A DNA stretch of 64,000 nt from Eledone cirrhosa (lineage: Eukaryota), in contig OZ024742.1 of the NCBI GenBank assembly GCA_964016885.1, positions 304,792,001-304,856,000 of the forward strand. Direction: 5' to 3'. The position numbers were made by a program, and so were the translations under genes. Positions 990 through 42,065 of this stretch are shown piece by piece. The notes beneath the pieces are model-generated. The model was not told the origin of the DNA and ran no database searches. It worked only from the letters and a program-made list of their open reading frames with translations. Position 1 is the stretch's first letter; each line of letters begins with the position of its first letter.

Positions 990-1899
990 TAAAAGACATT
1001 TATAAGTACCGTATAAAATTCCACCCCTTACTAATGTTGTGACCTTTTCCGAGTTTAGAAATCGTTAATGTAAAATATATTATCTAAATAGGAAATCCTT
1101 TGAATTCAGGATGAGGACTCCAATAATACTGAATGAAGTGATAATGAATACTGATTCATAACTGTAGCTGTGCAGCATAATCACGCGACTCCATGCCTCT
1201 ATTACTCACATTTCATCTTTGTAAAGTTCTGAAGAGTATTATATGCATAAGGTTAATTATCTATTTTGAATAAAAACAGAATCGTTTTTAGAATACACCT
1301 ACGGTTTCCATCCCGGAAGAATCTGCTTGATATCACTTCTTCAACAATGTAACTGAACCATCAAGGGTGTATACTGTGGATAACGAATTAGCTATGTATT
1401 CCTTCATTTAATCACTTCATCTTTATAGCTTTAAATTTTTACTCAGTAGTGTTTCCGTCTACCACTTCATTTGTTTTGGTTAGTAGGTTGCCATTTCATC
1501 TTCAAGAAATTTAAGTATTCATGTTTAGGTGAGATCTCCCACCATGATATGTTCTATGATTTATTTTTAATTCTTTATAACCCTCTATTTCTTGCTGTCC
1601 TAATTACATCTCTCCTGGCCAACCTCTATATTCTATTTTTGGTGATTCATTTTCATATAGTTTTGTTTTCTTTTTTAAATCCACTTCATTCGTCAGAACT
1701 AATTAAATATTTTTATTGATGCAAGGATTCATAGCTTTCTTTTATCAACAATTCTTTCAGCCGCTGTTGCTAGAATTTTCTCAAAGAATTACTGTTAATA
1801 CTTGAACATTTAAATTTGATAATAATATTTTTTCTCTAATTTTGTTTGTATGATTGATGCTATAAATTTTTCAGATATTTCACATTTGCATTTCAATTT

Positions 1900-2230
1900 T
1901 TCATGATTGATTTGAGCTTAATATCCATTGTTAATATTAAAAGCTAGTAATCGTTGTCTATATCTAAACCTAGAAGCACCCACGTTTTGTGTTCATCTAT
2001 TTTTGATTGGTATATTTTAGGGATGCGAATAAATATTTCTGGTGATGCTTTGTGTTTAGTATAATTAGTTTCTGATAATTTGTGAATTCTAATAATCTTT
2101 CTTTCGTGGTTTTTTTAATGATTTTTGAACAATATTTGTTGCATTTCAGTCACTTTTATTTAAAAATATGATAGCCTTTAGTTTAGATTGGCAATTGATT
2201 TTCAAAATCACGATGGAGATCCTTTCATTT
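1900..2230 (-). pseudogene. Degenerate LINE (RTE-like) APE endonuclease fragment; probably extends toward ~1100
   Basis: Minus strand gives KERLLEFTNYQKLIILNTKHHQ (2104-2039; cf. GERLLEF...NL.I.NT.F.H). Further on it gives VLLGLDIDNDY*LLILTMDIKL (cf. V.RGADI.SDH.LV...I.LKL). Confidence 0.5.
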
Positions 2231-2258
2231 TTGTGGCATATTAATTAATCGCAAGAGC

Positions 2259-2326
<68 letters not shown>

Positions 2327-28416: not shown

Positions 28417-28781
28417 CCATTGAAATGACATATAATAATAAAAATATAATATATTCCTTATGCTCAAGCCCTCTATGAGTATACTTGTATATTTCTATAG
28501 GCATGCATATTTTGATATTGATAGCTCTCTTTAAAAAAAAATATCAAGTAATGTTTTTCTGTTATAAATGAAAATATCAACTACATGATTTACTCTCTAT
28601 TCTGAAATGGAAAAAAAAATAGAAATCAAGAACAAAAGATGGATGAGTTATCGGTTATTAAAGAGGAGCAGCGTTCATAAAAATATTGTCATATATAATT
28701 TTTGAGGAGGGTGGGGTTTTACTTTTTTATTATACATGTTGTTAAAAATACTTTTAATCCATTATGTTCAGACCTAATATA

Positions 28782-29113
28782 CGAGGGCAATCCCAAAAGT
28801 AAGGTCTCCAAAGCGATAGGGACGCAGTGAAACTGTTCGTACGGCTGTTGGCAACACTGTTGTGATTGGTGGTTCCTTCACTCCCAAACAAGCATGCGCG
28901 CGCTTCGCTGGGATGCTCAATCTTGGCTGGGCAGCCGTCAACGGAAGCTCCATTCTCAACGGCTGCCAAGCCAAGATTGAGCCTCCCAGCGAAGCGCGCG
29001 TATGCTTGTTTTGGAGTGAAGGAAGCACCAATCACAACAGTGTTGTCAACAGCCGTGTAAACAGTTTCTCTGCGTCCCCATCGCTGTGGAGATGTTATTT
29101 GGGATTGCCCTCG
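28782..29113. mobile_element. Mariner-type MITE (332 bp, almost fully palindromic, TA TSD)
   Basis: TA|CGAGGGCAATCCCAAAA...TTTGGGATTGCCCTCG|TA. The CGAGGG end is typical of mariner TIRs; arms are ~155 bp. Confidence 0.85.
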
Positions 29114-29118
29114 TATAT

Positions 29119-29151
<33 letters not shown>

Positions 29152-30213
29152 TTACCTGACATTAGTTGAGTCGATGTTTAAAATATATCACCCATAATAA
29201 CTTGGTTATCTATTAGTTACCAAAGAGTTACTCTCTGATCAATAGAGAATATATGGGTCTCATTTCCATCAGAAAATGAAATCAGTAACCTGAAATATTT
29301 AGTAGACTGTGTAGTCAAACACACAACCAATCTACCAGCTCCTCCCTCGTGAGTAAACTTGGAATAAAAATATTACATAAGGGTATTTCGCTATAACTTA
29401 CATCAAAGATAAAGTACAGTAAAGTCTAAATTAACTTATTTACTATACAACATCTTATGTGACATATGGCTGTTGTAATAATCCTGAATTATAAAGGTAA
29501 GAATAAAATCTTTTATCTTTAAAGGCGATTGCAATTTAAAGTTAAGCTCCAGTGTTTTCAAGCTGAAAGAAGTGGTGAATCTATTCTCCACTGTCGGACG
29601 AGATTTACATCCTATATGAACACTACAACAATAATCGGATTAGAAATTCAGGAAATTATCTCCCTTTCATATACTCTCATGAGCTCATTCCCTTGTCGCT
29701 GATATCACTTCTAACCGCAAGATAGATGTTATGCTCAGATACCACATAGTCTCTAAACATGTGTAATACAGACGTTAGTTGGTGGTTTGCAAATATTGCC
29801 TGCAATGCCATCCATTCTGATGCCACAGATGAAAACAATAAATTGAATGTCAATAATAATTAGTGTGAGAGTTGAACGTGATATATATATATATATATAT
29901 CATTAGAAAGCAGTTGAAAATAAATCGGGGATATAACCAAAATTGAGGCGGAGATTAGGGATGGCAAAACTATATATCTGCCTCTATGCCGTCCTTACCC
30001 TCTCCCTCCTCTTTCTCGCTCGCTGTCATTCTCCTTCTTTCTGTGTATCTCTCTTTTTATGTATCTCTCTATATATCTATCTACCTATTTATATATATAT
30101 ATACCGAAGTTTTCGTATAAATGTTAAATGAATATTACATATAAAATAAATATTTTCTCTGCGCATATATGTGAATCCTTTATTTGAATTACCGCCTCAA
30201 CGAAAAATGTCTG

Positions 30214-30277
<64 letters not shown>

Positions 30278-30345
30278 CAAGGTTTAGCAAATAAGGAAAA
30301 AGTTTCAAAATAAATTTTAAAAAATTAACATTACTTACTATAGTT

Positions 30346-30429
30346 ACCTTTACCGAATCGGTTTCGAATCTCAAAAATAAACGGAGACCATACGGCCTTC
30401 GTTGCAAAGAAAGATTCTCGTCAGAAGGT
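30346..30429 (-). ncRNA. Type I hammerhead ribozyme (intact), copy 1
   Basis: Minus strand ACCUU-CUGACGA-GAAUC[uuucuuugcAACGaAGGCCguauGGUCUcCGUUuauuuuuga]GAUUC-GAAA-CCG auu CGG-UA-AAGGU. All core residues are present; GUA cleavage triplet, predicted cut between 30351 and 30350. Confidence 0.92.
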
Positions 30430-30829
30430 TCTTTACATTCGAAGAATATAAAATTCTCGAACTTAAATTACAAACTGGCGCTATTCAAAATTGTTCCCGA
30501 GATGAGAGTAAATGAAGTGGAATCAATTTTTTCAAAGGCCGAGTGAAAAGATAGAAGCAGAGACAGGGAGGTCAATCGGCTACCGCTATAACTAGCAGCA
30601 GTCAGAACGACCAAATTTTTTTCTCAACATAGAGGAGTATAGTAATAATAGAATATGTGTTCCTACACGCACAAGGCGCTAGGGGACACATGTATTGTCC
30701 TACCAAATGCCAATGTGGTTCTATGGCAGGTTAATAAATTAACGAGCCAGAACATATAAATCAAGGTTTAGCAAATAAGGAAAAAGTTTCAAAATAAATT
30801 TTAAAAAATTAACATTACTTACTATAGTT

Positions 30830-30913
30830 ACCTTTACCGAATCGGTTTCGAATCTCAAAACTAAACGGAGTCCATACGGCCTTCGTTGCAAAGAAAGATT
30901 CTCGTCAGAAGGT
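30830..30913 (-). ncRNA. Type I hammerhead ribozyme (intact), copy 2
   Basis: Identical core and stems I and III to copy 1; differences fall only inside the distal stem II region. Confidence 0.92.
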
Positions 30914-31062
30914 TCTTTACATTCGAAGAATATAAAATTCTCGAACTTAAATTATAAACTGGCGCTATTCAAAATTGTTCCCGAGATGAGAGTAAATGAA
31001 TATATATATATATATAAACAACATGAGAAGAAAGAAGAATACTGCGTGGTTGCACATGGGTT

Positions 31063-31230
31063 AAGGAATTCCAACTTTGTCTGATTTACCCGTTTTATTT
31101 ACAATCCTTTAAAATTATAATATCATTATAATTTTAAAGGATCGTAAATAAAACGAGTAAATCAGACAAAGTTGGAATTCCTTTTATTAATATAATCTTC
31201 TATATACAATCATACACACCCGTGTATATT
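31063..31230. mobile_element. Short family D foldback (59-bp arms) with 3' tail; HHR part not included
   Basis: Arms 31063-31121 and 31125-31183. The sequence matches the outer ends and tail of 36751-37160. Confidence 0.85.
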
Positions 31231-31586
31231 TATATATATATATGGTTATCTGTTGAGCTCTGCTGACGATTGAAATCCAACCGTGACCATCTCCACTGAA
31301 AGTTTTCATGAAATAGTCTTTAAGACTATACAGAGCATTTGATGTTTTTCCAAATTGAAGGATAAGTATTTTAAACTTTATTTTATCATGAGTTAAGGGT
31401 CTATTGATTTTTCCCTGGATTTCACTAAATTCTGTGGATGAATTTGTATCCTGATTCTCTTTTGAGATGAGTTTGAATTATTTTTCCTAAATCTTACGTT
31501 AAGTACGTTTCCCATCTTGACGACATAGTCGCATATATGTTATAGAATACTATTAGCTTCTCGCTAAAACAATTTCTATACTTTTC

Positions 31587-32795: not shown

Positions 32796-33237
32796 TACAA
32801 TATTAAATAAATGGAAACTATATTTATATTTATAAAACCATATTTATTTCATTATATATATTTCAGGGATATCATATTAACAATATGCTATGCCTTCCTC
32901 AGACAAAATACAATATAAACAGTTTTATAGATAAATAGAATCGACATACCGTAAAACATCTACTTGCATTCTCAAATGCAAGTAGATGTTGTTACGGTAT
33001 GTCGATTCTATTTATCTATAAAACTGTTTATATTGTATTTTGTCTGAGGAAGGCATAGCATATTGTTAATATGATATCCCTGAAATATATATAATGAAAT
33101 AAATATGGTTTTATAAATATAAATATAGTTTCCATTTATTTAATATTGTAAATATACTCCAAATATTTGTCGAGTGCTTTTATATCAGTTATAAATATTT
33201 ACTAGTTGTAACCCAACAATTTAAATATAACTTTCCA
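32796..33237. mobile_element. Foldback HHR element, family C variant (~175-bp arms, 4-nt spacer) with 3' tail
   Basis: Arms 32796-32970 and 32975-33150 differ by a 1-nt indel. Tail 33151-33237 is followed by microsatellite. Confidence 0.9.
33036..33101 (+). ncRNA. Type I hammerhead ribozyme, family C variant (mirror copy ~32845-32910 on the minus strand)
   Basis: TATTTTGT-CTGAGGA-AGGCATAGCATATTGTTAATATGATATCCCT-GAAA-TATATA-TA-ATGAAATA. Stem II sequence differs from the 16899 copy but pairing is kept. Confidence 0.85.
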
Positions 33238-41130: not shown

Positions 41131-42065
41131 GGCGGTGGATTGGCAGTATCGGTAGAGGGTCGGCGCCTGCTTTGCACCATAAAGTTACGCCTCTTTACGG
41201 TCTGAGTTCAAATCCCGCCGAGGTTAACTTTGCCTTTCATCCTTACGGGGTCGATAAAATAAAGCACCAGTAATACACTCAGTTTATTGCTGGCCTTGTT
41301 CCAAAAGTAGAAACAATTGTTATTGCAGTATCAGTAGAAGGTCGGATGTCATGCTTTGCAGCATAGAGTTACGGCCCTTTGTGATCTGCGTTCAAATCCC
41401 GCCGATGTTAACTTTCCCTTTCATCATTACTGGGTCGATAAAATAAAGTACCAGTTACGCACTGGGGACGATTTAATCGATTTTCCCTCCCCCAAAATTG
41501 CTGGCTTTTGCCTATATAAGAAACCATTATTATTATAGTTGGTGGATTGGCAGTATCAGTAGAGGGTCGGACGCCATGCTTTGACGCATAGAGTTACGGC
41601 CCTTGCCATTCTGAGTTCAAATCCCGCCAAGGTTAACTTTGCCTTTCATCCTTACGGGGTCGATAAAGTAAAGTACCAGTAATGAACTGGGTATTTGCTG
41701 GCCTTGTGCCAAATGTAGAAACAATTATTATAGTTGGTGGATTGGCAGTATCAGTAGAGAGTCGGGCGCCATGCTTTCCAGCATAGTTAAATCACTTTAC
41801 GGTTTGAGTTCAAATCCCGCCGAGGTTTACTTTGCCTTTCATCCTTACGGGGTCGATAAAATAAAGTACCAGTAATGCACTGTGTAATTGCTGGCCTTGT
41901 GCCTAAAGTAGAAACAATTATTATAGTTACGGCCCTTGCCATTCTGAGTTCAAATCCCGCCGAGGTTAACTTTGCCTTTCATCCTTACGGGGTCGATAAA
42001 ATAAAGTACCAGTAATACACTGGGTATTTGCTGGCCTTGTGCCAAAAGTAGAAACAATTATTATT
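41131..42065 (+). mobile_element. Head-to-tail cluster of five SINE copies
   Basis: Copies at ~41131-41323, 41325-41535, 41541-41730, 41735-41922 and 41925-42065 (5'-truncated), each ending in (ATT)n. Confidence 0.92.

Follow-up and report, generated by a model that had tools for sequence, protein, structure and literature searches.

An ORF-Less Insert between TA Repeats

In the window, by which we mean the whole analysed stretch of 64,000 nucleotides from Eledone cirrhosa (contig OZ024742.1, positions 304,792,001 to 304,856,000), an insert of 726 bases is seated between (TA)n tracts and consists of one and a half copies of a unit read from the minus strand (table 1). The initial annotation had described direct repeats of 246 bp with a 484-bp period and about three differences, (TA)n borders, the lack of any ORF, and a complete minus-strand type I hammerhead in each repeat with differences confined to positions outside the core, and all of this holds. 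Indeed, 243 of 250 positions match at period 484, the sole strong one among the periods tested (the next best gave 92 matches); the repeats (30270-30516 and 30754-31000) span 247 bp when the TA overlap is counted, and exactly three positions differ (30377/30861, 30387/30871, and 30471/30955), all outside the catalytic core. Both hammerheads are complete in their stem and core layout, with an ACCUU/AAGGU stem I, CUGACGA, a 7-bp stem II carrying a long extension, GAAA, a CCG-AUU-CGG stem III, and a GUA triplet. The longest ATG ORF of the insert amounts to 34 aa (76 aa in a 3.4-unit copy), and (TA)n lies on both flanks. When compared with shuffled sequences, the predicted cut-to-cut monomer reaches a folding z of -4.7 in linear form (0 of 100 shuffles as stable) and of -4.8 in circular form (25 shuffles). 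The Rfam hammerhead search that had been suggested as a check proved unproductive: the covariance models gave no meaningful match on the element, just two weak unrelated ones, and microsatellite-driven miRNA noise over the whole window, the long stem II probably defeating the hammerhead models.

About 8 changes are private to the window copy and absent from the 29 other loci of its subfamily, which argues that it is a recent descendant; a role as source element is unsupported, these changes having no sibling carrier. It is also one of about three loci in its subfamily with two tandem hammerheads and, having both, could release a monomer, as far as its sequence can tell. Positions within the unit are hereafter numbered from q1 (30275) to q484 (30758), the cut falling at q77/q76.

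Table 1. Features of the insert in the window and copies of two related families (window positions unless a locus is given).
Feature	Coordinates	Strand	Remarks
Whole insert, 1.5 units (484 + 242 nt), interpreted as a non-autonomous Penelope-type retrozyme	30275..31000	minus (RNA sense)	5'-truncated at 31000
(TA)n target microsatellite, RNA-3' side of insert	30216..30274	none	
(TA)n at the truncated 5' side	31001..31016	none	
Hammerhead 1, type I	30346..30429	minus	predicted cut 30351/30350
Hammerhead 1, stem I and core	30429-30425 with 30350-30346; core 30424-30418	minus	
Hammerhead 1, stem II, GAAA, and stem III	30417-30411 with 30372-30366; GAAA 30365-30362; stem III 30361-30353	minus	
Hammerhead 2, type I	30830..30913	minus	predicted cut 30835/30834
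Predicted cut-to-cut monomer	30351..30834	minus	484 nt, 36% GC
Predicted pseudoknot	30403..30437	minus	UGUAAAGA (30437-30430) with UCUUUGCA (30410-30403)
Predicted pseudoknot, second copy	30921-30914 with 30894-30887	minus	
First fixed start of copying, q1	30275	minus	76 nt 3' of ribozyme cut; 55/88 arms
Second fixed start, q371	30645	minus	26/88 arms begin at q360-380
114-nt segment, optional "tail" in other copies	30645..30758	minus	inverted copies
Motif UGUUCUG...CAUAGAACCACA	30714..30754	minus	just 3' of first start; common to three related families
459-nt family copy	L122:5510-6430		
560-nt family copy	L244:about 1120-2310		

A Dispersed Family and Its Relatives

The genome (3.0 Gb) yielded 3,114 first-look candidates, the best copies being 93-97% identical (40 scored), and a 25-26-nt motif near q1 gave 2,062 exact genome matches vs 0 for its reversed control; the other copies that the initial annotation had proposed to search for are thus found in number. 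Because of these matches, and of a hammerhead core that is intact in 103 of 115 loci, the element cannot be put down to chance (one odd motif match, at L243, was itself rejected as such). The subfamily of the window copy accounts for 33 motif matches at 30 loci, with no array among them and longest arms of about 726-785 nt. In the contigs of one sample (three runs of unknown kind), the unit is covered with many variants, which has no bearing on expression.

Three related ORF-less families, with units of 459, 560, and 486 nt, occur in the same genome. The 459-nt family (2,410 candidates) has two ends 115 nt apart and aligns locally to the 484-nt unit with a z of 9.2 (0 of 200 shuffles), and the kinship of the 560-nt family is suggested by shared motifs; both follow the same two-end rule and share the long stem II, the pseudoknot potential, and a UGUUCUG...CAUAGAACCAC motif. 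The 486-nt family is about 70% identical to the 484-nt unit and includes an array of about 19 units (L241-L242, G000:C1, about 176.444-176.453 Mb), arranged head-to-tail with TA on both sides, a fixed start at one end, and a truncation at the other. Its units lie 10-11% apart at every lag and are close to star-like, with one closer pair, as if the array had been written once and then aged, possibly as a single 9-kb rolling-circle product.

Insertion Anatomy

The anatomy of the insertions was read from 62 distinct loci on the largest contig, which were drawn from the first 100 motif matches by order of position rather than by score, the last seven or so loci in that list being left out. Their 88 arms start at q1 in 55 cases, at q360-380 in 26 (mostly q371), and elsewhere in 7, and 73 of the 81 fixed starts have TA repeats as their immediate outer neighbours; in a tandem, the RNA continues beyond q1 with UAUAU, which makes a short match with the TA of the target. 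The circularly permuted ends that the initial annotation had expected were not found in this sample, one end being fixed and 81 of the 88 arms beginning at the two fixed starts. The far arm end, by contrast with this fixed one, is scattered (median 327 nt past q1 over the 62 loci), so copies measure from 0.1 to about 3.4 units, and two whole hammerheads stand in tandem at 8 of the 62 loci. Moreover, 24 loci are inverted, their two starts pointing outward, and in 20 of them an arm from q1 is combined with an arm from q371.

The element ends are not LTR-like, and the features present (5' truncation, partial tandems, inverted arms, and microsatellite targets) form a Penelope-like set. Indeed, descriptions of Penelope-like elements (PLEs) mention copies truncated in 5', partial tandems, arms in inverted orientation, and a tail that may be present at one end (PMC8557442; PMC3846280), and this tail has been explained in vitro by two internal RT start sites together with the extension of both target strands (PMC11167929). 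Here, the optional tail between the two fixed 3' ends is 114 nt long in the 484-nt family and 115 nt in the 459-nt family, and the two fixed starts, together with the inversions that use one site per arm, are the Penelope-like "tail" signature.

Conservation of the Ribozyme and a Predicted Pseudoknot

The columns of the hammerhead core are less variable than the rest of the unit (P = 0.005, base composition not being controlled), and one stem II pair appears as A-U in 11, G-C in 10, U-A in 5, and G-U in 2 of 29 distinct haplotypes that were picked for diversity, the shuffle control for covariation ignoring relatedness. The core, the long stem II, and the pseudoknot are kept in the three related families, and these observations speak for selection on the ribozyme. 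The partners of this predicted pseudoknot are the segment just 5' of stem I and the internal loop of stem II, and their complementarity is found with different letters in all four families (5-8 bp in the 484-nt family; 7, 6, and 6 bp in the others), with shuffle P values for the commonest forms of 0.19 in the 484-nt family, which taken alone does not exceed chance, and of 0.002, 0.014, and 0.034 in the others. With one mismatch, it is present in 73 of 115 loci; at helix position 3, an older subfamily has A-U, most copies have A-G, and the subfamily of the window has U-G. On this comparative basis, the maintenance of the pseudoknot across the four families is probable, and hammerheads are known to be stabilized by pseudoknots that link stems I and II (PMC3088659).

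Hammerhead activity, for its part, is a prediction. The same pseudoknot pairing can instead form a predicted hairpin that hides the core, and the hammerhead fold lies about 4 kcal/mol above the ensemble (ViennaRNA, which models neither pseudoknots nor tertiary contacts). As a point of reference, 1 of 9 Xenopus retrozyme dimers is reported to have cleaved in vitro (bioRxiv 10.64898/2026.07.22.740005).

A Candidate Driver

Among 10,595 GIY-YIG candidates in the genome, about 7 PLE families were sampled. One of them (L121, L122, and L293-L296) combines an RT, a C-x4-C-x2-C linker, and, at the C-terminus, a GIY-YIG domain, and appears Neptune-like by the linker described in PMC8557442. It counts at least 113 copies at 98% or higher RT identity over 360 aa. 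Among its 3' ends, 32 distinct ones were compared, and these have (TA)n at 75-76 nt after a hammerhead-like cut in 7 cases and at 141-144 nt in 15, the others lying at different distances or in tandem, and the 76-nt distance from cut to end equals that of q1 in the retrozyme. Sequence similarity between this family and the 484-nt unit is not significant (z 1.2-1.6); more generally, comparison with 14 PLE 3' regions revealed no significant partner homology (BLAST, and local alignment with shuffles; best z 2.4 and 1.6), and a nucleotide profile run against the PLE loci returned low-complexity matches alone. This very young Neptune-like PLE is a lead on the driver, and a driver of this kind is plausible given the matching distance. 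The hammerhead-like motif of the family has a variant core, UUGAAAA replacing CUGANGA, that is common to two other PLE families, and CCAAT- and TATA-like motifs were seen by eye upstream of it. A hammerhead considered as the 3' end of the PLE locus L122 was rejected, as it belongs to a related non-autonomous element lodged in the TA tail of that PLE.

Circle, Multimer, or Jump

The distance from the cut to the first start on its 3' side being 76 nt, a linear monomer, once cut, could serve as template for no more than 76 nt. Of 90 passages over the cut, 83 (92%) continue past q84, and 7 stops fall at q70-84 vs 3.9 expected (P = 0.09, on BLAST-derived ends that are uncertain by a few bases). This read-through leaves three kinds of template: a circle, a multimer that had not been cut, or a monomer onto which the RT jumped back.

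Overlapping repeats of a same locus could be compared over at least 80 bases in 66 of 128 loci, at 61 subfamily-diagnostic sites. Within loci, 98 of 2,255 calls are discordant (4.3%), vs 35% between random locus pairs, and locus pairs have up to 15 minor alleles in common when these lie on both repeats but at most 2 when they lie on one. In the test of shared discordant alleles, which covered 63 loci once L044, L027, and L217 were excluded as compound or chimeric, 28 one-repeat alleles recur at two or more loci against 28 simulated under independent mutation, and pair-shares of discordant alleles number 51 vs 39 simulated, which is borderline high (P = 0.052). (The within-locus distance is smaller than that to the nearest other locus in 15 of 66 loci, an uninformative count, since taking the minimum over neighbours biases that distance downwards.) Any new variant is thus passed on to all the repeats of a descendant, and a monomer bottleneck is implied; read-through and allele sharing both favour a circular or re-read monomer over a linear multimer. 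The initial annotation had argued for a circular template from the 1.5-mer itself; that argument falls, partial tandems being ordinary for all PLEs (PMC8557442), but its conclusion gains indirect support from the read-through at the cut and from the homogeneity within loci.

If the template were instead a linear, multimeric transcript that is made from tandem donor loci and left uncut, with the hammerhead serving later or for another purpose and no circle being formed, the read-through would fit equally well; the one PLE tested in vitro is described as still inserting when its hammerhead was mutated and as using unprocessed, uncut RNA as its dominant template (PMC11167929). Competing folds could let multimers survive, and homogenized donor arrays could be absent from the assembly. 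However, the repeats within a locus have a common subfamily and private alleles, which requires a monomer bottleneck or else donors homogenized one by one in each of many sub-lineages, and the 30 loci of the youngest subfamily include no array. The array of roughly 19 units in the 486-nt family does offer a precedent, but its units are not homogenized, differing by 10-11% at every lag, and in the lack of long donors copies would be expected to shorten at each generation. We thus consider a multimeric template unlikely.

More doubtful still is the possibility that the hammerheads free a linear monomer and that the RT, on reaching its 5' end, jumps to the 3' end of that monomer or of a different one, tandems arising with no covalent circle involved. 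The slight excess of ends near the cut would agree with it, as would L027, a tandem chimera whose second repeat comes from another subfamily and whose switch, between q22 and q67, falls just before the cut and within 70 nt of it. That excess is not significant, however, and most passages go on beyond the cut; chimeras amount to about 3 of 66 loci and are thus rare, and most loci preserve the stretch spanning the cut, with the 3' strand of stem I and the GUA triplet. L217, for its part, has inverted arms from two subfamilies, and such mixed loci, L027 included, count against a circular template.

Finally, the view that the unit is a pLTR of an unsampled autonomous PLE, or a satellite spread by unequal crossing-over, is highly improbable and largely refuted: PLE pLTRs do carry hammerheads and tails, and 8 of 162 loci have fragments of PLE ORFs in their vicinity, one of which directly abuts the unit (L108), but every arm longer than one unit re-enters the 484-nt unit at period 484 and the eight neighbours come from different PLE families, in mixed orientation and mostly across TA, so the unit is not a pLTR, and the copies are dispersed with fixed starts and inversions. 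With seven PLE proteins as queries, none of the 162 loci has the unit continuous with an RT/GIY-YIG ORF or as the terminal repeat of a Penelope-like ORF, which supports the independent, retrozyme-like 484-nt unit of the initial annotation; the PLE ORFs lying 5' or 3' of the copies at L005, L278, L008, and L232 were set aside as unrelated neighbours.

Proposed Mechanism

The reading that we prefer, and hold to be reasonably probable, is that of an ORF-less 484-nt non-LTR retrozyme that a PLE enzyme probably copies into (TA)n, likely round a circularized monomer. A host transcript would read through a locus with two hammerheads; both would cut, with the help of the pseudoknot, and free a 484-nt monomer, which may then be closed into a circle, by analogy with the retrozymes of coral, mussel, and axolotl. 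A Neptune-like GIY-YIG endonuclease would cut TA repeats, and the RT would start inside the RNA at two fixed sites 114 nt apart, often one per target strand (the fixed starts, the TA targets, and the inverted pairs are observed, and the enzyme we infer). The RT would then proceed 5'-ward over the ligation point and halt variably, leaving copies of 0.1 to about 3.4 units (lengths and read-through are observed, and the circular template is presumed). The UGUUCUG motif next to the first start may act in this process as an RT-recognition hairpin. A wider formulation, to which we grant an even chance, holds that the four families are a record of rolling-circle target-primed reverse transcription by a PLE enzyme, from two starts on a ribozyme-made 484-nt circle, one per strand and on both strands of a cut TA repeat, this circle being an RNA whose structure is conserved and includes a recognition hairpin as well as a hammerhead with a long stem and a pseudoknot.

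Relation to Known Elements

Although the family was not known to be described when initially annotated, its class had been (Cervera and de la Pena 2020; Li et al. 2026, preprint): the element type is already known, that of the non-LTR retrozymes, and the added value lies in the insertion anatomy and the bottleneck test. Non-LTR retrozymes are known from coral, mussel, and axolotl, where circles have been shown (Cervera and de la Pena 2020, PMC7229834). As described there and in a review (PMC7761336), these metazoan elements are, like the Eledone unit, ORF-less, low in GC, and tandem; they too carry a canonical type I hammerhead with a stable stem III, and a circle and a PLE driver have been proposed for them (PMC7229834). 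In contrast, their units measure 150-450 nt rather than 484 and form arrays, whereas the Eledone copies are mostly dispersed, 5'-truncated partial tandems with two starts and inversions; the Eledone unit also has a long stem II and a predicted pseudoknot, and its cleavage and circles are predictions. Vertebrate retrozymes have been linked with PLEs through the homology of pLTRs (Li, Clavereau, Pollet, bioRxiv 10.64898/2026.07.22.740005). According to that preprint, they likewise co-occur with PLEs and span 51-972 bp, a range that includes 484 nt, and the Eledone unit would count as "active" in its terms, with two complete hammerheads; its link to PLEs, however, comes from insertion anatomy and not from pLTR homology.

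With regard to PLEs themselves, the mechanism of Poseidon_Ac (Frangieh et al. 2024, PMC11167929) and the structure of PLEs (PMC8557442; PMC3846280) are described with the same two internal RT starts and optional tail, and with the AT-rich targets, both-strand extension, inverted 5'-truncated arms, and partial tandems seen here. The Eledone element differs in having no ORF and a tail of 114 nt, against 30-40 nt, and its starts show a short TA match to the target, when that of Poseidon_Ac is described as non-homologous (PMC11167929). MRC1 and other non-autonomous PLEs of Chlamys are also head-to-tail, multicopy, and bounded by PLE ends (PMC8557442), but, as presented in that source, they generally resemble an autonomous partner in 3' and are devoid of canonical hammerheads, unlike the Eledone element. 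As for pseudoknotted hammerheads (Perreault et al. 2011, PMC3088659), the Eledone one stands apart from those described by its partner, the internal loop of a very long stem II, and by being a repeat-borne type I. Our literature search, with Repbase, Dfam, supplements, and subscription papers outside its scope, brought up no publication dealing with retrozymes of cephalopods or with the ends of retrozyme insertions, and the word "ribozyme" is absent from the main text of a repeat annotation of Octopus vulgaris (PMC13282606).

That PLE enzymes copy circular monomers is a proposal of the retrozyme literature that no direct test backs, and in the single in vitro study of a PLE, hammerhead cleavage came out as dispensable. 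The present family joins both lines, with a PLE two-start signature, a cut that is crossed, and a monomer bottleneck, and the presence of a young Neptune-like PLE in the same genome makes the choice between a circle and an uncut multimer testable with a 484-nt RNA. If the circle is genuine, the family would provide a minimal substrate for how PLEs make tandems and for what their hammerheads do.

Other Elements in the Window and at Family Loci

Beside the element, positions 31046-31240 of the window hold a short inverted pair corresponding to the 3' terminus of a further Neptune-like PLE family, the same sequence being found downstream of the ORFs in L124, L125, and L128. At least seven further type I hammerhead motifs from four other families are present in the window (32853-33093, 36901(-), 39206(-), 39590(-), 46189(+), and 58050(-)), most of which have a minimal, palindromic stem III and end in (TA)n at 35-150 nt past the cut, and those at 32902 and 33044 form an inverted pair. 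Positions 28754-29197, a short, GC-richer, and partly self-complementary segment with open frames on both strands, are possibly a DNA-transposon fragment, and at 41529-42064 a SINE-like sequence is repeated in tandem with periods of 140 and 193. Copies of the family at L023 and L025 adjoin an unrelated tandem hammerhead array of at least five nearly identical 310-nt units, which is another, very young retrozyme family.
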